A stretch of 64,000 nucleotides of DNA from Candidatus Nomurabacteria bacterium. Lineage in GTDB: Bacteria; Patescibacteriota; Patescibacteriia; UBA1558; GWA2-36-10. This document shows, piece after piece, positions 3,995 through 60,737 of this stretch. Location: NCBI GenBank assembly GCA_020632415.1, contig JACKFO010000002.1, positions 322,732-386,731 on the forward strand, written 5' to 3'. Both the position numbers and the translations under genes were made by a program. Below the pieces are notes generated by a model. That model did no database searches and was not told where the DNA came from. It saw only the letters and a list, made by a program, of their open reading frames with translations. How positions within the stretch are numbered: position 1 is the first letter of the stretch; each line of letters begins with the position of its first letter.

Positions 3995-4234
3995 TCACTC
4001 TCCCAAGGCTTTTTTGGCCTGTTGATACTGACGAATCAACCAGAGACTGGCCAACACTCCCAAAACAAAACCGCCGCTCAGGAGCATCGCCAATTCAAGA
4101 TCTAGCACATCTTTGGTCATCGACCAAAACACACCACCCAAACAGCTGAGAGTGGCTATAACCGCCACAACGGAAAAGCCAAACCAATTGCTTTTGACCT
4201 GCTCCAGGTCTTTGAGTTCAGATGCACGTGACAT
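3995..4234 (-). CDS. small two-TM membrane protein (79 aa), compositionally atypical cassette gene
   Basis: GC about 48% against about 34% in the flanks. GGAGG 8 nt upstream of ATG (MSRASELKDLEQ...), which host genes lack. Two hydrophobic helices. Track ORF trimmed from 4249 to the SD-preceded ATG. Confidence 0.45.
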   Translation of the reverse strand: MSRASELKDLEQVKSNWFGFSVVAVIATLSCLGGVFWSMTKDVLDLELAMLLSGGFVLGVLASLWLIRQYQQAKKALGE

Positions 4235-4304
4235 CAGTCTATCCTCCAAATTGAAGAACCGTCATCTTGCTTTAAGTTTGACACAGAGCAAAAAATTTGT
4301 AAAA

Positions 4305-11222: not shown

Positions 11223-11260
11223 AATAATAGTACAAAATACTATTATTTTTTGTTGTTTTT
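11223..11260 (+). terminator. weak AT-rich hairpin plus T-run after the PEGA gene
   Basis: AATAATAGTA-caaaa-TACTATTATT followed by TTTTTGTTGTTTTT. Confidence 0.3.
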
Positions 11261-11345: not shown

Positions 11346-11945
11346 ATGTCAAATCTAACAAAAAAACAAAAAGAAATTTTAGACTTTGTCACTGAATTTA
11401 TTCAAAGCAATGATTATGCTCCTAGCTATCGAGAAATAGCTGACTACTTTGGTCTCTCCTCTACTGCTACAGTCCACGAGCACCTCAAAGCTTTGGAAGA
11501 TAAAGGTCTAATTACCTCCAATCATAACGCGGCGCGTTCTTTAGAGCTTGTTACTCAACGTTTTGGCAAATCAATTGAATTGCCCTTAGTTGGTTTAATC
11601 GCTGCCGGAGAGCCGATTGAGGCGATTCAACAAAATGAATCAATCGATGTGCCTCAAAGCTTTGTTCGCGATGAAAATAGCTATGTTCTAAAAGTCAAAG
11701 GAGAATCAATGATTGAAGAAGGAATTTTGGATGGTGACTATGTAATTGTTGAACGTAATTTTTATCCACGCAATGGTGATGTGGTAGTCGCTCTACTTGA
11801 TAATACTTATGCTACTCTCAAAAAATATTTCCGAGAAGAAAACCGCATTCGTCTTCAGCCAGCCAACCACACCATGAAACCAATCTATGCCAAAAATCCA
11901 GCAATCCAAGGAATAGTCCGAGCAGTATTAAGAAAATTTGTTTAA
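11346..11945 (+). CDS. lexA: LexA repressor
   Basis: N-terminal wHTH. AAGEPI cleavage-site region. S24 peptidase Ser (VKGESM) and Lys (ATLKKY) dyad. Confidence 0.9.
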   Translation: MSNLTKKQKEILDFVTEFIQSNDYAPSYREIADYFGLSSTATVHEHLKALEDKGLITSNHNAARSLELVTQRFGKSIELPLVGLIAAGEPIEAIQQNESIDVPQSFVRDENSYVLKVKGESMIEEGILDGDYVIVERNFYPRNGDVVVALLDNTYATLKKYFREENRIRLQPANHTMKPIYAKNPAIQGIVRAVLRKFV

Positions 11946-23529: not shown

Positions 23530-24513
23530 TCAGGGACGCCAGTAGTAGCGCACAGCCGCGACTGCCTGCTCGAGACGACTGTCGTAGCCGACCTGGAAGC
23601 TCAAAGAGCCGATCAGCTCCCCAGAATTCTTCCAGCCAAGAAAAGCCTGCCAGGCTTCAGCTTGCTCACCGAAGTCAAATCCTGAGGTCAAGAAGAACTT
23701 CTGCTTTGCTCCCAGACGGAGAAAATCCCAGTTTCCCTTCAAGACGTAGAGATTGTCCGGAGCGATCCATCCGTCCGGATGGAAGCGATAGCTCCAGCCA
23801 CCGGCCAAAGCCAAAGACTGCCAGGGTCGAGTGTAGAGCGAGACGTTATGACCAATCTCTTCTTCCCAGCTCAAGTGAAGATCGAAAATGCTCCAGTAGC
23901 CATTGAGGTGGTAGTTGCCGACCCAAACATCACTATCCAGCATCGGAAAAGCGCTGAACAAACTATCCAGACCTCGTGCTGGCCATGTACGACGAGCGCC
24001 ATAGCCCAAAGCAGCAGAAGCGCCAAAAGGTCGACCTCCCAACTGATCATACCAAGCGACTTGCAAGGCTGCTCCTGAGATACTCCCGGTAAAAGGCAGC
24101 TCAGCGTCATTTGGTCGCAAGAGAGTTGCTTCGTAGGCCTGAGGAAAGCTTTCCAAAGCCAGGTTTCGATACTGTCCAGCGCGCAGACTGAAATTCCCAT
24201 TGGAATTTCGCCAATCGTGCTGAACAAAGGCCTCGCTCAAGAAAGCCTCAGCCTGATCACCGTAAGCAATCTGACCTTCAGCCTTGAACGAAAAAACCTT
24301 GTTTTGACCACTTGAAACCCAAGCTTGTCCTCCTAGAAGGCTGTATGACCAGCGGGCTTGCAAGCTATCTTCGAAGCTGGTATTCAAACCAGCGCCTCCA
24401 TAGAAGTCCAGCTGGAAACGTTCCACCTGATCATCACTGGAAGCAGCAGCAAAAGCTGTGGACTGGGTCCAGAGGATCAACAGACCCAACAGCCAAAAAC
24501 TCAAAGTTTTCAT
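23530..24513 (-). CDS. secreted beta-barrel-like protein (ORFan, GC-rich cassette A)
   Basis: GC about 58%. GGAGG 8 nt upstream. Signal peptide (AFA|AA). Alternating aromatic/Gly-rich amphipathic strands along the protein. No recognisable family. Confidence 0.5.
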   Translation of the reverse strand: MKTLSFWLLGLLILWTQSTAFAAASSDDQVERFQLDFYGGAGLNTSFEDSLQARWSYSLLGGQAWVSSGQNKVFSFKAEGQIAYGDQAEAFLSEAFVQHDWRNSNGNFSLRAGQYRNLALESFPQAYEATLLRPNDAELPFTGSISGAALQVAWYDQLGGRPFGASAALGYGARRTWPARGLDSLFSAFPMLDSDVWVGNYHLNGYWSIFDLHLSWEEEIGHNVSLYTRPWQSLALAGGWSYRFHPDGWIAPDNLYVLKGNWDFLRLGAKQKFFLTSGFDFGEQAEAWQAFLGWKNSGELIGSLSFQVGYDSRLEQAVAAVRYYWRP

Positions 24514-24753: not shown

Positions 24754-25500
24754 ATGAACCGCATTCACAGCTTCTGCCTGCTGATGCTCCTGTGCATCAG
24801 CGCCGCCTTCGCCGACGCCTACGAAGAACCCATCAAGAACACCAACCCCGACACCACGGCCACCACGGCGTCCTGGGAAGCGAACACGCTTCCGATGGAA
24901 CCCTGGCTGATCAAGTGGGACGCCAACGGCCAGCCGGTCAAGACGCATCGTCTGAGCTTCGAAATTTCCGGCAGCGACACCCTGTACTACAAGGGTGACT
25001 GCCTGATCGAAGATCAGCGCGTCCGCTGGTATCCGAAGTCCCTGCAGGACAACCGGATGCACTCGGCCTACTGGACCGCTCGTCGCAGCATGTACGCGGC
25101 ACTGCTCGTCGCCGGCTACCAAGCGCGCGAAGCCGACTCGCTCTGCCGCACGCTACAACCCGTGATCGATGGCCAGAAGGACAGTCGTCCCCTGCTCAAC
25201 CAGATCATGGCCGCCGCCCCGAACATCCACAAGCTGAACATGCTGGAACATGAGCTCCTGGCAATGCAACAGCAGATGGTCACCGTCGACATGCTCAACG
25301 AGTTCGCCGGAGACATCGACGCCGCCCTGTCCGAACACGTCAACTTCGCCGAAACGGTGGATGACTTCCTCAATCAGACACGAGGAAAGAAGTGGGGACG
25401 CGCCAAACGTGCTCACTCCCTCTTCCTGACATCGGCGCCGCCGAGCGAGGAACGATGCCTTCCGTCAACGGAAGAGATGCCCATGCCGAGCAAGTTCTGA
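24754..25500 (+). CDS. secreted protein (ORFan, GC-rich cassette A)
   Basis: GC about 60% with E. coli-like codons (CTG, GGC, CGC, ATC). Signal peptide MNRIHSFCLLMLLCISAAFA. Start trimmed from the track ORF 24565 to the SD-preceded ATG. Confidence 0.5.
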   Translation: MNRIHSFCLLMLLCISAAFADAYEEPIKNTNPDTTATTASWEANTLPMEPWLIKWDANGQPVKTHRLSFEISGSDTLYYKGDCLIEDQRVRWYPKSLQDNRMHSAYWTARRSMYAALLVAGYQAREADSLCRTLQPVIDGQKDSRPLLNQIMAAAPNIHKLNMLEHELLAMQQQMVTVDMLNEFAGDIDAALSEHVNFAETVDDFLNQTRGKKWGRAKRAHSLFLTSAPPSEERCLPSTEEMPMPSKF

Positions 25501-31338: not shown

Positions 31339-32688
31339 CTAGTCGACGTTCACTGTGCCAACAGCGCCACCGCCTCTGACCTTGATATTGGAGTTTTTCT
31401 TCTCAGCCAAATCTCCAATCTCTTGCAGACAACGCAGACGCTGTTCATAGGTTGCTGTTTCGGGGTTCAGGCCTAAAGCCGCCAAAGCAGCATCAATCTC
31501 TGCTGTGAAAGCCTCGCCATCTGCCTTGCGAAGACGAATCTTACGCTTGGATTCAGACTCAGCGGCGGCCTCAGCATTTTGAGCTTTTTCGATCTCTGGA
31601 TCTCTAGTGGGATCACCAAAGTCCAAAGTATCGAAAGCATGCCCAACGGCCTCCAGCAACTTGCCATTAAGTTCGGTTTGCTTCGAATGATCAAAGGTTA
31701 CGTCCAAACCCTTGACCTGATCGAAACTCATAGAGCTCATGACACTTATCACATCATTGACAATTACTGTGCCAGCTACCTCAACCGAAGTCGACTGATC
31801 CTCAGACGACATCCGCAGAAAACGAGAAGGATGCTGACAAGTAATCACGCCAACTCGAAGATCAATATTGGCAGTAGAGTTGTCTCCTAGCGGCACAAAA
31901 CCAGTCTTGTATTTGCGTTCTATGGCCTCATAACGCAACAGAGTGACGCTATAGAGAAACATCCAAACTGGAATTCCTACTCGGCCCAGATACCAAGGCA
32001 AGATTGGCGCATTTATGTCACTATCACGATGATTGCCGTGATTAGATCCATAAAAATACCAATCGCCAAATTTCTTCCTGATCGGACCTCTCGGAATCAG
32101 AAATGGCCTATTCATGAACTTCGGAACCCAGCGCTCGGTCACTTCCGGCACCATGATCGAACCAATACTCCAGAAAATTGGTAAAGCCAAGAGAAAGACT
32201 GGCTGCCAGATACCAACCATAGCGCAGGTGAAAAAGCCGACAGCAGAAATTACTCCGAACCCGTAAGGTCTGGCCGGAGGCGGAGCTGGTTTTTGACCCT
32301 TGACTACATCACGCTTATCAATGAAAAAGCTGCCGGTCCAAGCTCGGCGGAAAGCGATCACGCCGAAGCCTAGCAAAACAAGGCTGGCGATCAGCTTCCA
32401 CCAAGGGAATTCTCCGTTGAAATTAAGCCAGGAGAAAAGCTGCCAGTTCCACGGCTTCAGCAACAAAGCTGCGTACCAAAGAACAAGTCCAAGCTGCAAA
32501 GCGATCCGAGTCCTCTTATCCTTAGATGTTTTAGGCTTCTTATCCTTGTCCAGATCAACGAGCCAGCTATTCAAGCTCCAGTAGATACTGAGCGGCAAGG
32601 CAAAGAAGATCAGGAAAATAGCGATGCCGTGAACAAATTGTGGGTCTTTCCATCCCACACGGCTGATGATTTTCTCCAAGGCTTCCAT
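31339..32688 (-). CDS. polytopic membrane protein with cytoplasmic C-terminal domain (ORFan, GC-rich cassette F)
   Basis: GC about 50%. RBS GGAGAA. About six TM helices then an approximately 200-aa soluble domain ending in a coiled-coil-like KIRLRKADGEAFTAEIDAALAALG. Confidence 0.55.
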   Translation of the reverse strand: MEALEKIISRVGWKDPQFVHGIAIFLIFFALPLSIYWSLNSWLVDLDKDKKPKTSKDKRTRIALQLGLVLWYAALLLKPWNWQLFSWLNFNGEFPWWKLIASLVLLGFGVIAFRRAWTGSFFIDKRDVVKGQKPAPPPARPYGFGVISAVGFFTCAMVGIWQPVFLLALPIFWSIGSIMVPEVTERWVPKFMNRPFLIPRGPIRKKFGDWYFYGSNHGNHRDSDINAPILPWYLGRVGIPVWMFLYSVTLLRYEAIERKYKTGFVPLGDNSTANIDLRVGVITCQHPSRFLRMSSEDQSTSVEVAGTVIVNDVISVMSSMSFDQVKGLDVTFDHSKQTELNGKLLEAVGHAFDTLDFGDPTRDPEIEKAQNAEAAAESESKRKIRLRKADGEAFTAEIDAALAALGLNPETATYEQRLRCLQEIGDLAEKKNSNIKVRGGGAVGTVNVD

Positions 32689-47929: not shown

Positions 47930-49609
47930 TTATCTATTTTCTAAAACTGGAATGTTTTCCGGTTTAATTTCTTCCACTGACTTTTGAGCGTCTTGCTCGA
48001 TCATTTGCGGTTTTTCTTCAATTTCTACTAATTCTTCACTATCTTGAAATTCAATTACTTCTATCTCTACTGGTTTAATTTCTTCCTTGATCTGAATTGG
48101 TGAAATACGGGCTGTGCCGCCACCAGAACGAATTGGCTTGATAATTTGTTCTTTTTTAGTAATTTCTTCTTTGCCTACTATCAAAACTTCAACATCTTCT
48201 TTGCTTAATTCAGTTACTGGAACTTTTGGTAAAATAGTAACTTTATACAAAGTTTCAGTTAAACCATTTTCAGAAACCACCCTGACGACAATCACATCGT
48301 TTAAAGTAAATTCTTTTTTGCTTAACTCATCAATGTCTTTGTTTTCCCATAATTGCCATTTTTTGTCTCTTAACAAAGAAACTCCCAAATAACTAGCATC
48401 TGGATCATTAGCTTCTACAAATAAGCTATTTAAATCGATGGAATCAACACAAGCATGATCTGACCATTCATGACAATTTTCTTCGCTGATTACTGGTACA
48501 AATAAACTCGCGCCTTCATCTTCCATTTTGGCAACTTTGACATTGTCTAATTTTAAAATATCATTTTGACCGATGCTAAATTTCTGCAAACTTGCATCAT
48601 TAACTTGATTGCCGATGATATTTAATTTATAAAAAGCTTGAGTTGTGCCATCTTCGGCAACTACCGTTACCTGGATAACATCACCGGGCAAAATATTTTC
48701 TTTATGTAAAGATAAAATCTTTTCGTTTTCCCAAATAAAAGTTGGTGCTGGGTAAACCAAAATTGCACTTGGACGGACAATTTCTACTTTAATATAACTA
48801 ATGTTTTGATCTTCTGGCTCTAAAAATAAACCAAGAAAATTTTTGTTTGGATCTAAACAAGTTTGACTAGAAACTTCTGTTTCTGAACAAAAATAATCAT
48901 CAATTAACAAATTTGCTCCTGTTTCAGTAAAATCTTTGACTGTTAAATTAGCAAAAGGCAAAACATCAACGAAATCAACTTTAAAAATGTTTAAGTTAGC
49001 ATTATCAGACAAAACGATTTCCGATCCGCCTCCGCCACCATTACCGCCTCCGCCATAAATAGGTCTAGTGGAAGTAGGGGTTGAAGTAGCCTCTTCATCT
49101 TGCAATAAATCTTGTAAATCTTCCCACATCAACAAACACTGATTAACAACGTCATCATTAATATCTTCTGGATTTAAAGCAGCCATCACAATATCAGCCT
49201 CAATACAATCGTCTAAAGTTAAATCTGTCAAAAGATCTTCAGTTGAAGTAGATAAGTCTTCTGCTGGAGCAACAGGAACTTTTGGTGGAGCTACAAAATT
49301 TGGTCTTTGACCACCAATTCCACCGACAAAGTCATCGGTACTAGTGCTTGACTCATCGGCCACTTCTTCTACCAAAAGCTGTTCAGATGCAACTTCTTGA
49401 TTATTATCGCTAATTTCTGGTGCTTCATCACGACCAAAAACGATAATACTTTGAATTAAGGCATAAACACCTAAAGCAAACAAAAACCAAAAAAAGAATT
49501 TCTTTTTCTTCTTTTCTTCTGGCTGAGGATTTTGATCCAAATTTTCAGTTGGCGTTTGAGCAACTTGATTGTCTGGTGATTGATCTAAATTATTTTGATT
49601 TTCTTCCAT
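47930..49609 (-). CDS. paralogous secreted surface protein with poly-Gly linker and cadherin-like beta-sandwich domains
   Basis: Same architecture as 45577..47817 (GGGGNGGGGGS; ...VVAEDGTTQAFYKLNIIG; ...VVSENGLTETLYKVTILP). In tandem with it. Confidence 0.6.
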   Translation of the reverse strand: MEENQNNLDQSPDNQVAQTPTENLDQNPQPEEKKKKKFFFWFLFALGVYALIQSIIVFGRDEAPEISDNNQEVASEQLLVEEVADESSTSTDDFVGGIGGQRPNFVAPPKVPVAPAEDLSTSTEDLLTDLTLDDCIEADIVMAALNPEDINDDVVNQCLLMWEDLQDLLQDEEATSTPTSTRPIYGGGGNGGGGGSEIVLSDNANLNIFKVDFVDVLPFANLTVKDFTETGANLLIDDYFCSETEVSSQTCLDPNKNFLGLFLEPEDQNISYIKVEIVRPSAILVYPAPTFIWENEKILSLHKENILPGDVIQVTVVAEDGTTQAFYKLNIIGNQVNDASLQKFSIGQNDILKLDNVKVAKMEDEGASLFVPVISEENCHEWSDHACVDSIDLNSLFVEANDPDASYLGVSLLRDKKWQLWENKDIDELSKKEFTLNDVIVVRVVSENGLTETLYKVTILPKVPVTELSKEDVEVLIVGKEEITKKEQIIKPIRSGGGTARISPIQIKEEIKPVEIEVIEFQDSEELVEIEEKPQMIEQDAQKSVEEIKPENIPVLENR

Positions 49610-49732
49610 ATTTTTATATAAATTATTGACGTTTCATTATAACATATTTAAATTTTAAGGCAAATCATCTCTGATATGATACCAAAAAATTACATAATTC
49701 AACTTTTGCGGATAATAACATATTTTATATAT

Positions 49733-49775
49733 TCTGTCAATATGTATTGACAGAAAAGTAAATATATGATATAAA
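49733..49775 (+). promoter_or_regulatory. promoter TTGACA-17(ends TGA)-TATAAA whose -35 lies inside a perfect 22-bp palindrome TCTGTCAATA-tg-TATTGACAGA
   Basis: Palindrome 49733-49754, -35 49747-49752, -10 49770-49775. A candidate operator overlapping the promoter. Confidence 0.55.
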
Positions 49776-49893
49776 AATACATTAATTACGTTCCTTACAA
49801 AGGAGATTGTTATAGTGTCTAGATTAACTAGATCATAGTTAGTTTGCACACTGTAACAGTCTTTCAACAATCCTCAAACAGGAGAACAAAGCC

Positions 49894-49962
49894 ATGTTCA
49901 AAAAGTGGTTTCCTAATCAAAGCAACCAGAGAGAGTCGACGTCTTCAACGCGAGTTGAGTAA
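49894..49962 (+). CDS. 22-aa upstream peptide (MFKKWFPNQSNQRESTSSTRVE)
   Basis: AGGAG 8 nt upstream. Ends 17 nt before the AAGGAGGG RBS of the next gene. Composition intermediate between host and cassette. Confidence 0.3.
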   Translation: MFKKWFPNQSNQRESTSSTRVE

Positions 49963-49979
49963 GCCTTAAGGAGGGAACA

Positions 49980-50429
49980 ATGAGTCCCAAGACCAAATTT
50001 TACTGCTGGCTGGCGGCGATGACCGTCATCACTCTGACGACTCTTTTTGTTGTCAACGCAGTGAGTGGTAATCCCACATTAGCCATATCCGCCGCATTCG
50101 GCGCGTTCGCTATCACCGTAATAGTCGCGCTCGCTGTCGCCACATCATCTGTCGTGCTCGCCGGACTCATCGCACTCCTGATCGCCAGCGGAGGCGGAGT
50201 GGTCGCGTGCGCTGTCGCACTCCTGATCACCGCCAGAGCCGGAGTGGTCGCGAACGTCGACGCATTCGCCGGACTCGCCGCCGCATCCTTAGCATTCGCC
50301 ATATCCGTCGTAATTATCTTCATCCTTTCTGCTTATAAGAGCACTCTTTCCAAGAGGCATATCCTTCTTTCAATGACGGTGGTATCCATTGTCATCGCCA
50401 CCCCGATGCTCTACCTCGCACTGCAGTAG
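49980..50429 (+). CDS. Ala-rich polytopic membrane protein (149 aa, ORFan, cassette B)
   Basis: GC about 58%. RBS AAGGAGGG. Four to five Ala/Val/Ile-rich TM helices. No known family. Confidence 0.5.
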   Translation: MSPKTKFYCWLAAMTVITLTTLFVVNAVSGNPTLAISAAFGAFAITVIVALAVATSSVVLAGLIALLIASGGGVVACAVALLITARAGVVANVDAFAGLAAASLAFAISVVIIFILSAYKSTLSKRHILLSMTVVSIVIATPMLYLALQ

Positions 50430-50463
50430 AACATTGAAACATTGACTGTTTGAAGACCAAAGT

Positions 50464-50500
50464 CCCTCACGTGCACTATGACGTGAGGGCTTTTATTTTC
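50464..50500 (+). terminator. intrinsic terminator of cassette B; its T-tract overlaps the stop codon of the convergent SDR gene
   Basis: CCCTCACGT-gcactatg-ACGTGAGGG followed by CTTTTATTTTCTTTC. The SDR TAA is the complement of 50493-50495. Confidence 0.6.
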
Positions 50501-51203
50501 TTTCTAAATGTTGGAACGGATCAACCACTGCTCCGCTTTTGTATTTTTGCTGTTGACTAATTGTTTCGCCAATAATTTGAGCTGTCTCCTCTGGCTGATA
50601 CAAAGCCTGACGTCCTTGTTTAAAAGCTTTTTTAAACAAAGCAGTATTAGTTGCTCCTGGAGTAACTGTCAAAACTTTGACAGTTTTCAAATCTTTGGCC
50701 AAAGATTGACCAAAACCAACCACACCAAATTTTGAAGCACAATACACGGAAAATTCTTTTTTACCTTCCAAGCCAGCGCCAGAGGAAATATTCACAATCA
50801 ATCCTCTGCTCTTTTTTAAATTTGGCAAAAAATATTTTGACATCAAGATTGTTGCCTGCAAATTAACAACTAAGGTTTTGACAATTGCCTGATCTTGATA
50901 AGTTTCTAAAAGACCTGCCAGTGGCACGCCGGCGTTATTTAACAAAACATCAATTCTCTGATTCTTGAGTTTAGTGGCGATTTTTTTTATTTGTTGAACT
51001 TTTTCTAAATCAATGACAAAAGTCTGAATTGTTATCTTTTCTTTTTCGGCTAAAGTTTTGGCTTTTTTTTGCCAAGTTCCTCTTTTTTTATCCAATAGAA
51101 TCAAATCAAAATTATTTTTGGCCAGCCAACAAGCCGTAGCCCAACCAATCCCTTGAGCCGCTCCGGTGATCAAAACTGTTTTGGAAGCTTTTGAAAAAAT
51201 CAT
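50493..51203 (-). CDS. short-chain dehydrogenase/reductase
   Basis: TGAAQGIGWA (TGxxxGxG), NNAG, catalytic YCASK. Confidence 0.85.
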   Translation of the reverse strand: MIFSKASKTVLITGAAQGIGWATACWLAKNNFDLILLDKKRGTWQKKAKTLAEKEKITIQTFVIDLEKVQQIKKIATKLKNQRIDVLLNNAGVPLAGLLETYQDQAIVKTLVVNLQATILMSKYFLPNLKKSRGLIVNISSGAGLEGKKEFSVYCASKFGVVGFGQSLAKDLKTVKVLTVTPGATNTALFKKAFKQGRQALYQPEETAQIIGETISQQQKYKSGAVVDPFQHLERK

Positions 51204-53881: not shown

Positions 53882-53922
53882 GTTTATATTATACCATAAA
53901 ATGCAGTAATTCATATCTACTA

Positions 53923-53951
53923 TTGACAAATAAATACTTTTATGATAATAT
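53923..53951 (+). promoter_or_regulatory. promoter TTGACA-17(ends TGA)-TAATAT for the cassette-C gene
   Basis: -35 53923-53928, -10 53946-53951. RBS GGAG at about 54007. Confidence 0.5.
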
Positions 53952-54015
53952 TCAAAATCTAAAATTGTCCTTTTCGCTTTTCAATAACCAATCACCTCAA
54001 GCAACCGGAGCAAAA

Positions 54016-54558
54016 ATGCAAGCCTTTCATGAGTGGTTCGTCCACGAACTCGAGCAACGGCAGAACACGATCGACAATCCCTGTCCGATCGAAGTCGAAG
54101 TCAATGAATCGGGTACGGTACTCGGTACCCTACCCGACAACCTGAAGCCCCTCTTCTTCCTGATGCTCGACCTGATCGATGAGCGCAACGAGTCCGCCAC
54201 CGCGCTCCACGACTGGATCGTGGAACACCCCGGATTCCACCCGGCACACCCCGAAGATGCCAAGCCGGAACTGATCGGGGAATTCCAGGAGAAGAAGATC
54301 AATCACCGAGTCGCCTGCGACAAGCTGAAGACGATCACGTCCTACTTCTGGAGCAGCATCCACCACATCTTCCCCGACAGCCACAACCACAACAAGATGG
54401 AGGTCTGCAAGGACTGGCAGATCGTCTGCGGAGATGATGAAGGTGACATCAAGATCGATATCATCGGCATCGGCGGCATTCCCTCCGACTTCGTCGGTGG
54501 CTCCACCGTCGATCCCTTCGGCGACCTCCTCGGCAGCTTCTTCCGTCGAGGACACTGA
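54016..54558 (+). CDS. acidic His/Cys-containing cytoplasmic ORFan (180 aa, cassette C)
   Basis: GC about 57%, E. coli-like codons. Start trimmed to the SD-preceded ATG (MQAFHEWFVHELEQ...). No known domain. Confidence 0.5.
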   Translation: MQAFHEWFVHELEQRQNTIDNPCPIEVEVNESGTVLGTLPDNLKPLFFLMLDLIDERNESATALHDWIVEHPGFHPAHPEDAKPELIGEFQEKKINHRVACDKLKTITSYFWSSIHHIFPDSHNHNKMEVCKDWQIVCGDDEGDIKIDIIGIGGIPSDFVGGSTVDPFGDLLGSFFRRGH

Positions 54559-54590
54559 CGCCTCAACGCAGCAGAAATGATTGGCCACAG

Positions 54591-54626
54591 CCCCAAGTGC
54601 ATCACGCGCTTGGGGTTATTTTTTTA
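54591..54626 (+). terminator. intrinsic terminator of cassette C
   Basis: CCCCAAG-tgcatcacgcg-CTTGGGG followed by TTATTTTTTT. Confidence 0.55.
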
Positions 54627-54691
54627 AAACAAAATATAATACATTGATTTTTTTCTTAAAAATAAGTAAGATTAGCTTATAAATTTTAATT

Positions 54692-56687: not shown

Positions 56688-56811
56688 CTCACTTAAAATT
56701 AATCAAGGTGCTCTGACCTTGTTTTTTTATTGACAAAATAAATAAGTAGTATAAACTTAATAAGTAAAATAAGTCCTTCCACCCGTCCATCTTAAACCAA
56801 GGAGGTATGCC

Positions 56812-56898
56812 ATGCATGCCAACCACGCCCCGCCCACGATGAGCACCGATCTCGTTTCGCCCCTGCGCCGTCAGCTCAAGAGCACCGAAATCGTCTAG
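56812..56898 (+). CDS. 28-aa hydrophilic peptide (MHANHAPPTMSTDLVSPLRRQLKSTEIV), cassette D unit 1
   Basis: GC-rich. AAGGAGG 6 nt upstream. Own promoter-like TTGACA at about 56743. Followed by a strong terminator. Confidence 0.35.
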   Translation: MHANHAPPTMSTDLVSPLRRQLKSTEIV

Positions 56899-56935
56899 AG
56901 CCACCAAGGCAGACGAGGCTATTGAGCTTCACCTA

Positions 56936-56967
56936 CGGCTCGCGCCACGCGCGAGCCGCTTTTTTTA
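56936..56967 (+). terminator. intrinsic terminator CGGCTCGCGC-cac-GCGCGAGCCG plus T7 (copy 1)
   Basis: 10-bp GC stem with a 3-nt loop. Identical to the copy at 57246-57278. Confidence 0.65.
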
Positions 56968-57102
56968 TCCAAAGTTTGACAAAATTAGAAATATATCATA
57001 AAATAAAAACTCAAGGAGTGTGAGTATTCTCAAGACTGACTTGGGAATCTCCCTCAACAACCATCAACCGTGGCTGTCCGCAAGGACGAAAGGAGCCGGT
57101 CT

Positions 57103-57201
57103 ATGAAGACCCCCTGCACCGCCATCATCACCCAGAAGAGCACGGAGATCGTGCAGACCACCGAGAAGAACGGCCAGCTCAAGGCCATCGAGCAGATCTA
57201 G
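57103..57201 (+). CDS. 32-aa hydrophilic peptide (MKTPCTAIITQKSTEIVQTTEKNGQLKAIEQI), cassette D unit 2
   Basis: GC-rich. RBS AAGGAG. Shares KSTEIV with unit 1. Promoter TTGACA-17-TAAAAT at 56975-57003. Approximately 95-nt GC-rich leader. Confidence 0.35.
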   Translation: MKTPCTAIITQKSTEIVQTTEKNGQLKAIEQI

Positions 57202-57245
57202 CTCCAGCGGGAGTAAATCACTCGAAGCCAAGAAGCTGAAACACC

Positions 57246-57278
57246 CACGGCTCGCGCCACGCGCGAGCCGCTTTTTTT
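57246..57278 (+). terminator. intrinsic terminator CGGCTCGCGC-cac-GCGCGAGCCG plus T7 (copy 2)
   Basis: 33-nt near-identical repeat of the unit-1 terminator, with one mismatch in the 5' flank. Confidence 0.65.
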
Positions 57279-60260: not shown

Positions 60261-60737
60261 ATGAATTGGCGAAAAATTGCACTTCTGTGCCTACTTCTTG
60301 CTTTGCCGATGTGGATGCTGATCCGTTCTATGCTGCCTTCGCAGTCAGTTATGGAACAGCTCCAGGAGATCGCCGATCGAACTCCCATTCACTTCGCTTT
60401 GTTGGTCGATGGACAGAGAATCGAGTATTTCGGCTTTGCCATCGATACCAGCACAGCAGCGGATACGAGTTTCGTCGAAAATCTCTACTTCTACGATCAA
60501 GTCGTGATCTGCAACATTCCAGGAGAGAACCAGTACCTCGAAGTACTCAAGGACACCCTGGATACGATCGACCCTCTGGGCACAGTCAAAGATCACGCTC
60601 CATTGGTCGGAGGCGACTACATCATCGAAGCCTACGATGCTTGGACGGATTCCCTCAAGTTCAGAGCGCGAATTCGCGCCGAACACATTGACGGAGAACC
60701 GTACATCTTCGATGATCAGAACCTTGTCAACAACTGA
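60261..60737 (+). CDS. secreted ORFan (158 aa, cassette E)
   Basis: GC about 55%. Signal peptide MNWRKIALLCLLLALPMW. Start trimmed to the SD-preceded ATG. No known domain. Confidence 0.5.
   Translation: MNWRKIALLCLLLALPMWMLIRSMLPSQSVMEQLQEIADRTPIHFALLVDGQRIEYFGFAIDTSTAADTSFVENLYFYDQVVICNIPGENQYLEVLKDTLDTIDPLGTVKDHAPLVGGDYIIEAYDAWTDSLKFRARIRAEHIDGEPYIFDDQNLVNN

Follow-up and report, generated by a model that had tools for sequence, protein, structure and literature searches.

A candidate moron-like gene cassette encoding an orphan membrane protein in a Candidatus Nomurabacteria genome

Why would a streamlined genome carry, between two genes of ordinary composition, a single GC-rich gene with what look like its own expression signals, and what does that gene encode? 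We examined this question at cassette B, which occupies positions 49,733 to 50,500 of a 64-kb stretch of a Candidatus Nomurabacteria genome obtained from activated sludge (GenBank assembly GCA_020632415.1, contig JACKFO010000002.1, positions 322,732 to 386,731; this whole stretch of 64,000 nucleotides [nt] is called the window below). A first-pass annotation made from the letters alone had described here a palindrome, a promoter, a small upstream open reading frame (ORF), a 149-aa ORF, and a terminator, and we found each of them where it had been placed. We read cassette B as a moron-like accessory gene, that is, a self-contained unit of foreign composition in a variable intergenic slot whose product is an orphan polytopic membrane protein, and we give this reading a probability of roughly 55%. 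The parts of the cassette are as follows.

49733 to 49754, no strand assigned: perfect 22-bp palindrome TCTGTCAATA-TG-TATTGACAGA with two back-to-back -35 boxes inside
49747 to 49775, plus strand: predicted cassette promoter, TTGACA, 17-nt spacer, TGa-TATAAA with the -10 box at 49770-49775 (extended -10)
49802 to 49864, plus strand: predicted RNA hairpin in the 5′ leader, 28 bp (5 G-C, 16 A-U, 7 G-U), one C/C mismatch, 5-nt loop
49880 to 49962, plus strand: AGGAG (49880-49884) and 22-codon upstream ORF (49894-49962; MFKKWFPNQSNQRESTSSTRVE)
49968 to 50429, plus strand: AAGGAGG (49968-49974) and ORF (49980-50429) for the 149-aa orphan polytopic membrane protein (NCBI H6761_01860)
50170 to 50259, plus strand: in-frame 45-nt tandem duplication (IALLIASGGGVVACA / VALLITARAGVVANV), 36/45 identical
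50464 to 50499, plus strand: intrinsic terminator, 9-bp G+C-rich stem (50464-50489), then CTTTTATTTT

A self-contained unit of foreign composition

The window has a G+C content (GC) of 36%, and GC at third codon positions (GC3) in its core genes is 0.20 to 0.32. Cassette B lies between an SDR gene and the gene for a 559-aa cadherin-like surface protein, in housekeeping surroundings that also include a P-type ATPase, ArgRS, other tRNA synthetases, and further surface proteins. Its ORF has a GC of 0.56 (200-nt windows peak at 0.65), compared with 0.36 window-wide and 0.34 to 0.36 in the flanking genes; it is GC-rich, as in the first annotation, which gave about 58%. GC3 is 0.65 versus 0.22 to 0.29 in neighboring core genes, and most codons end in C, whereas core genes favor codons ending in T or A. 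By these sequence measures, the codon usage of the ORF is foreign to the genome.

On sequence criteria, the cassette carries a sigma-70-type promoter, a strong Shine-Dalgarno site, and an intrinsic terminator, and with its leader these make up the autonomous unit originally proposed. The promoter is the annotated TTGACA-17-TATAAA element, whose -35 box lies within the palindrome; our consensus scanner skipped it because TATAAA lacks the usual last T. Transcription would start near 49782. The Shine-Dalgarno site is a consensus AAGGAGG placed 5 nt before the ATG, in agreement with the strongly driven ORF described earlier. The terminator, likewise present as a 9-bp stem and T-run, starts 34 nt past the stop codon of the 149-aa ORF, and its T-run extends into the end of the convergent SDR gene, covering that gene's stop codon and final codons.

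Three independent assemblies carry cassette B at 100% identity, and one 9-kb contig spans both junctions, so the mosaic is not an assembly artifact. Short contigs from other samples match window positions 49608-50514 (L002) and 49749-50514 (L003), again at 100% identity; both end at 50514, and one starts inside the palindrome. This shared end could reflect low-coverage fragmentation or a different flanking context, and an exact-protein look-up of the SDR did not separate the two for these contigs.

A predicted orphan polytopic membrane protein

The sequence features of the 149-aa ORF indicate that it is very probably a real gene for a membrane protein with five to six helices. The three codon positions differ strongly in their nucleotide use (chi-square 94, p = 5e-18), and the grand average of hydropathy (GRAVY) of the product is 1.56, which is 6.7 standard deviations above composition-matched random translations; the other five frames of the region are hydrophilic or stop-filled. 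NCBI names the product hypothetical protein H6761_01860, Candidatus Nomurabacteria bacterium; the contig that encodes it is 842 kb long. It is a small polytopic membrane protein rich in Ala, Val, Leu, and Ile, which bears out the hydrophobic composition noted earlier, with 20% Ala, 5% Gly, and frequent small-residue motifs. Hydropathy over 19 residues exceeds 1.0 throughout residues 14-117, and a single-sequence AlphaFold2 (AF2) model with a predicted local distance difference test (pLDDT) score of 66 contains six helices. We read the model as five, possibly six, membrane spans, residues 57-87 being kinked at GGG; this bears out the polytopic character proposed in the first pass and revises its count of four to five helices. 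Charged residues and His are few (8 of 149) and are concentrated near the N terminus (K4, K6) and in a single loop (K120, K125, R126, H127), such that by the positive-inside rule the N terminus would be inside and both clusters cytoplasmic. The two copies of the in-frame duplication agree at 36 of 45 positions, compared with 25.6 ± 1.2 (maximum, 30) among codon shuffles, and the differences between them (about ten) all fall in amino-acid-changing codons, which suggests a young, fast-changing gene.

Searches for relatives returned the protein alone. A word-indexed search covering 5.8 billion proteins recovers only the query itself, as does an exhaustive HMMER search against 1.84 billion cluster representatives, and the protein has no match in Pfam, PHROGs, NCBIfam, or PADLOC, in viral or metagenome contigs (tblastn-confirmed scans), in phage or plasmid collections, or among PDB sequences. 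Fold searches with the model returned generic helical bundles only and were uninformative. The first-pass annotation had likewise been unable to assign a family, and the homology and fold searches that it proposed brought to light no relative and no routine transporter subunit family. At the RNA level, the cassette B region has no Rfam match, either at gathering thresholds or at E ≤ 10.

A variable slot in related genomes

We located two relatives, L004 and L005, through the SDR protein (70% and 64% identity, respectively). Both share the gene order ArgRS, P-type ATPase, SDR, slot, cadherin-like gene, and in both, the stretch without homology to the window begins immediately past the SDR stop codon and extends to the vicinity of the cadherin-like gene's proximal promoter. 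In place of cassette B, the slot contains a gene for a 277-aa secreted protein and a 177/116-aa gene, with GC of 0.45 to 0.50 in genomes of 0.35 to 0.36. This comparative context of a variable slot and moron-like cassettes had been overlooked in the first pass. The L004 record (CAZXZY010000024.1) is titled "uncultured Gammaproteobacteria," yet it has 36% GC and is syntenic with the Nomurabacteria genome (ArgRS, ATPase, SDR, cadherin-like gene); judging from its sequence, it is probably mis-binned or mislabeled.

The 177-aa protein of the relatives has a 180-aa homolog in the window (25% identity, E = 1e-9), encoded in another slot, the one that separates the ATPase gene from the ArgRS gene. 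Its cassette (promoter, gene, and terminator; 53882-54691) is a clean insertion of ∼690 bp relative to the short ArgRS/ATPase intergenic regions of the relatives (L004:5181-5277, L005:5202-5315), with a 4-bp CAAT at both junctions; the relatives hold the distant homolog in the SDR/cadherin slot instead. On this sequence evidence, cassettes move between slots.

Phage morons are defined by their own promoter and terminator, by deviating GC, and by their presence as extra DNA when related genomes are compared (Cumby, Davidson and Maxwell 2012, PMC3594210). Like morons such as HK97 gene 15, cassette B is a single gene with its own terminator and, as a sequence match at 49747-49775, its own promoter; it deviates in GC (GC, 0.56; GC3, 0.65), relatives carry something else at its position, and its product is a small membrane protein, as moron products often are (PMC3594210). 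DNA that is extra relative to relatives is seen at the neighboring 54016-54558 cassette, whereas the slot of cassette B shows replacement. Unlike phage morons, cassette B sits in a CPR chromosome among housekeeping genes and not in a prophage.

Horizontal acquisition accounts for up to 13% of genome length in Patescibacteria, and the acquired genes and genomic islands resemble the cassettes described here in being compositionally deviant accessory DNA of streamlined Candidate Phyla Radiation (CPR) genomes, often membrane related (PMC12455944). Those islands are multigene, whereas the cassettes of the window are single-gene units of 0.3 to 1.4 kb that come without an integrase, transposase, tRNA target, or identifiable donor, their products being orphans.

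Predicted head-to-head promoters at the palindrome

Two more features, both on the minus strand, lie at or near the palindrome.

49712 to 49740, minus strand: predicted divergent promoter, TTGACA at 49740-49735, 17-nt spacer, TGt-TATTAT at 49717-49712, 11/12 match
49636 to 49663, minus strand: predicted proximal promoter of the 559-aa gene, TTGCCT, 16-nt spacer, TGt-TATAAT

The annotated 22-bp inverted repeat is indeed perfect at 49733-49754. The window has ∼14 distinct perfect inverted repeats whose arms reach 10 bp or more and whose loops do not exceed 6 nt, nearly all of them terminators, against ∼1 expected per 64 kb of matched composition; the palindrome is therefore not a chance occurrence, though it belongs to an enriched class. 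It contains TTGACA at 49747-49752, the -35 box of the plus-strand promoter, and TGTCAA at 49735-49740, the -35 box of a minus-strand promoter that faces the gene for the 559-aa cadherin-like protein (47930-49609). The first pass had not recognized the left arm as part of a second promoter, its -35 box. The -10 region of this divergent promoter aligns with TGCTATAAT of L004, and both relatives have a single TTGTCAATA at the corresponding position and no palindrome; the proximal promoter of the 559-aa gene is conserved in both and marks where resident DNA resumes. The symmetry reaches 28 nt per side (79% complementary) and spans both spacers and both -10 boxes, as two mirrored promoters would produce. 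We conclude from the sequence that head-to-head promoters account for most of the symmetry of the palindrome and that a bound regulator is unneeded. The palindrome does cover the -35 box, as in the repressor-control arrangement suggested originally, but with two divergent consensus promoters and no adjacent regulator gene, a repressor is no longer the simplest reading. Divergent bacterial promoter pairs are similar in that two sigma-70-type promoters on opposite strands share a short control region whose symmetry derives from the promoter elements themselves; here it is the predicted -35 boxes that are juxtaposed (centers 12 bp apart), not the -10 boxes. An alignment of the cassette B promoter with promoters of the relatives' cassettes was unconvincing, and we make no claim from it.

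An exact-pattern scan for TCTGTCAATA-NN-TATTGACAGA found 12 metagenomic contigs, representing ∼6 independent loci, and none among viral contigs; as these occurrences stand in unrelated contexts, we rejected the palindrome as a conserved operator. The 22-bp palindrome immediately precedes a Y-family polymerase gene in the vicinity of lexA in one case (L016:6883-6904), lies upstream of a MerR-like gene in another (L008:598-619), and elsewhere separates the genes for a TonB-dependent receptor and an oxidoreductase (L009:1420-1441; L009/L017), and extra half-sites occur near some copies. The window itself has a second perfect 22-bp palindrome, AACTGTCAAAACTTTGACAGTT, at 50664-50685. It falls within the SDR coding sequence at a distance of ∼930 bp from the first and has the same CTGTCAA/TTGACAG core at a spacing 2 bp shorter; a further palindrome lies at 50616-50639.

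A structured leader with an upstream ORF

The leader runs ∼110 nt to the small ORF, in keeping with the earlier estimate of approximately 120 nt, and ∼195 nt to the main ORF, which that estimate does not fit. Its most striking predicted element is the 28-bp hairpin at 49802-49864, overlooked in the first pass, which encloses an AAGGAG and a GTG-initiated 7-codon mini-ORF. The hairpin folds at -32.3 kcal/mol on the plus strand versus -15.3 on the minus strand (z = -7.0), ranks 8th in stability among the 70-nt windows listed for the 64 kb, and is the only one of those near genome GC (0.33). All seven G-U pairs favor the sense strand, which would have a probability of ∼1% if mismatches were randomly oriented; this strand bias points to selection on the transcript. 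The length of the hairpin would suit RNase III cleavage or a stabilizing role. No other copy occurs in the window or in viral contigs.

Downstream of the hairpin, the 22-codon ORF with its own AGGAG was confirmed; the AGGAG sits 9 nt before the ATG, and the stop codon falls 5 nt before the main AAGGAGG. Both strands together (128 kb) contain ∼13 instances of a Shine-Dalgarno site followed by ATG and 22 or more codons, or ∼0.02 expected in a 200-nt leader, so the upstream ORF is unlikely to have arisen by chance. In the predicted fold, the main Shine-Dalgarno site is mostly paired, part of it with the leader's 5′-end GUUCCUU (p ∼0.34) and part with the first codons (p ∼0.57). Family scans of the PHROGs and NCBIfam type found no homolog of the 22-aa peptide. 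The spacing makes translational coupling of the upstream ORF to the 149-aa ORF plausible.

Alternative explanations

Several observations weigh against a moron-like accessory gene. Cassette B is known from a single sequence; no donor lineage can be named, the 149-, 180-, and 248-aa cassette proteins each matching only themselves in the word-indexed search, and such self-only matches fit poorly with a simple recent transfer from a well-sampled GC-rich bacterium. The relatives show replacement and no empty site at the slot, the cassette sits among housekeeping genes of a CPR chromosome and not in a prophage, and its -10 box, TATAAA, lacks the conserved final T. ORF length is not significant either, a stop-free run of at least 150 codons arising in 6.7% of composition-matched simulations, and this lends some weight to the idea that the island is an untranslated structured RNA or inert stop-free foreign DNA; GC-rich islands of AT-rich genomes are often RNA genes. 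We consider that idea highly improbable in view of the codon-position periodicity, the extreme hydropathy, the consensus Shine-Dalgarno site 5 nt before the ATG, the terminator 34 nt past the stop, and the failure to match Rfam even at E = 10. The first-pass suggestion of a toxin- or holin-like effector, here a membrane-damaging protein silenced by the palindrome and leader, draws on the small size, extreme hydrophobicity, and small-residue motifs (Ala 20%, Gly 5%) of the product and on its tight-looking 5′ control elements. Type I toxins are shorter than 60 aa and have one membrane span, and a protein of 149 aa with five to six helices is too large and has too many spans to be one; there is also no promoter-like site on the minus strand between 49780 and 50640 from which an antisense RNA could start, and no antitoxin-like neighbor. 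Holins have a charged, hydrophilic C-terminal tail, and their genes stand beside an endolysin gene in a lysis cassette. The C terminus here is a hydrophobic helix (...ATPMLYLALQ), the sole charged cluster toward that end being the internal loop at residues 120-127, and the flanking genes are the SDR and cadherin-like genes, with neither endolysin nor prophage context. With no PHROG or PADLOC match in addition, the toxin or holin claim is left without support, and we regard such a function as very unlikely. We also considered and rejected an integron gene cassette. Integron gene cassettes are promoterless ORFs followed by an attC site, arrayed beside intI; cassette B has its own promoter and terminator, no recombination site is repeated among the cassettes of the window, and no integrase was recognized among window ORFs, of which only part were scanned against Pfam.

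Two further proposals concern how the cassette would be controlled. A dimeric helix-turn-helix repressor bound at 49733-49754 could block both -35 boxes and so regulate the cassette together with the surface-protein gene's upstream promoter. The perfect 10-bp arms exceed the two TTGACA boxes by 4 bp, which counts against our promoter-based account and leaves room for a binding protein, and of the window's 19 promoter-like sites with TTGACA, only these two continue with GA. All 20 specified bases recur exactly in the ∼6 metagenomic loci against 1 to 4 expected by chance (a rough estimate, the database size not being known), and some copies adjoin a MerR-like gene or a lexA/dinB pair. Half-sites with at most one mismatch number 8 in the window against 5.3 expected, which is no enrichment and neutral for this proposal. 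Against it, most of the symmetry follows from two TTGACA-17-TGnTAnnAn promoters, the palindrome has no regulator gene beside it, L004 and L005 carry the single TTGTCAATA, and the metagenomic copies lie in unrelated taxa (GC 0.25 to 0.60) with unrelated neighbors and form no regulon. The sole regulator recognized in the window is what we take, by eye from its N-terminal sequence and not from a search, to be a LexA-like protein, whose gene is preceded by a palindrome that differs from that of cassette B. An operator at the palindrome thus seems to us possible but doubtful. Leader-peptide control, in which translation of or stalling on the 22-codon ORF would remodel the leader and expose the main Shine-Dalgarno site in the style of erm/cat or mok/hok, would account for the AGGAG of the upstream ORF and its ∼0.02 chance expectation, for its stop codon 5 nt before AAGGAGG, and for the predicted pairing of the main site. 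The likeness to ermC/cat attenuation and mok/hok coupling is exactly this, a short upstream ORF with its own Shine-Dalgarno site ending just before a partly sequestered main site. Cassette B differs in that what lies downstream is not a resistance gene and does not encode a small toxin, in having no demonstrable alternative-hairpin logic, and in showing no evident antisense RNA. The pairing probabilities (∼0.3 to 0.6) are ambiguous and come from one sequence without covariation, the peptide has no homolog in the family scans and, to our knowledge, carries no known stalling motif, and the only robust structure, the 28-bp hairpin, touches neither ORF's Shine-Dalgarno site. By analogy with those systems, leader-peptide control is conceivable here, but we think it unlikely.

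How the cassette may work

As a moron-like gene, cassette B might be expressed as follows. Its -35 box abuts, head to head, that of the promoter directed at the surface-protein gene, and this arrangement would be the main reason for the palindrome; two RNA polymerases would compete for or share the 22-bp region, and no repressor would be required. A transcript beginning near 49782 would carry the 28-bp hairpin, which may act at the RNA level, most likely as a site for RNase III processing or as a stabilizing element. Ribosomes ending the 22-codon ORF 5 nt before the main Shine-Dalgarno site could help to open it by translational coupling. The 149-aa protein would then insert with its N terminus inside and, like many moron products, might be an accessory part of the envelope that functions in host interaction or exclusion, not a lytic toxin.

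Taken alone, cassette B adds one more hypothetical membrane protein of a CPR genome. It is also a clean, well-delimited example of a single foreign gene installed with its own promoter and terminator among the housekeeping genes of a streamlined episymbiont.

Other GC-rich cassettes of the window

At least nine GC-enriched genes without a recognized family, cassette B included, stand between housekeeping genes in the 64 kb, and the GC-rich cassettes make up ∼8% of the window. The eight further genes are the following.

3995 to 4249, minus strand: GC-enriched gene
23530 to 24513, minus strand: GC-enriched gene
24754 to 25500, plus strand: GC-enriched gene
31339 to 32688, minus strand: GC-enriched gene
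54016 to 54558, plus strand: GC-enriched gene
56812 to 56898, plus strand: GC-enriched gene
57103 to 57201, plus strand: GC-enriched gene
60261 to 60737, plus strand: GC-enriched gene

Their GC is 0.46 to 0.58 and their GC3 is 0.52 to 0.81, compared with core GC3 of 0.20 to 0.32. Most GC-rich cassettes have a TTGACA-17-TATAAT promoter and a hairpin terminator, and several of the products have signal peptides or membrane spans. None of the eight proteins reaches family threshold, the 449-aa protein having a sub-threshold SPFH/Band 7 match only, and of nine cassette proteins and peptides scanned, none has a significant match in PHROGs (best E = 0.011, again the 449-aa protein). All three of the cassette proteins searched against the 5.8 billion proteins (149, 180, and 248 aa) are orphans. 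A 327-aa neighbor-type protein has a possible beta-barrel appearance, for which the AF2 model failed (pLDDT 32).

This pattern leads us to a broader and more tentative proposal, which we would not call probable, in which cassette B belongs to a set of rapidly turning-over GC-rich orphan genes with promoter and terminator that hop between intergenic slots of Nomurabacteria chromosomes. These would amount to a chromosomal moron system in an ultra-small episymbiont, fed by a GC-rich gene pool absent from billions of catalogued proteins and encoding mostly envelope proteins or secreted peptides. If so, the leader hairpin and head-to-head promoters would help to wire new genes into a streamlined genome and to insulate them from it. 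The population of GC-rich orphan cassettes is a more interesting lead than the gene itself, and it raises the questions of where the DNA originates, how it is inserted without a recognizable recombinase, and whether the products take part in host contact.

Three smaller observations concern the rest of the window. Two tandem mini-cassettes occupy 56728-57277, each with a TTGACA promoter and a GC-rich ORF of 28 or 32 codons; both end in the identical terminator CGGCTCGCGCCACGCGCGAGCCG, at 56936 and 57248, and their peptides share a KSTEIV motif. Another long, stable hairpin lies at 31577-31646 on the minus strand (-32.6 kcal/mol; GC 0.43), inside the coding region of the GC-enriched 449-aa gene. 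The LexA-like gene (11346-11945) is preceded by the palindrome AATAATAGTACAAAATACTATTATT (11223-11247), a candidate SOS box for the lineage.

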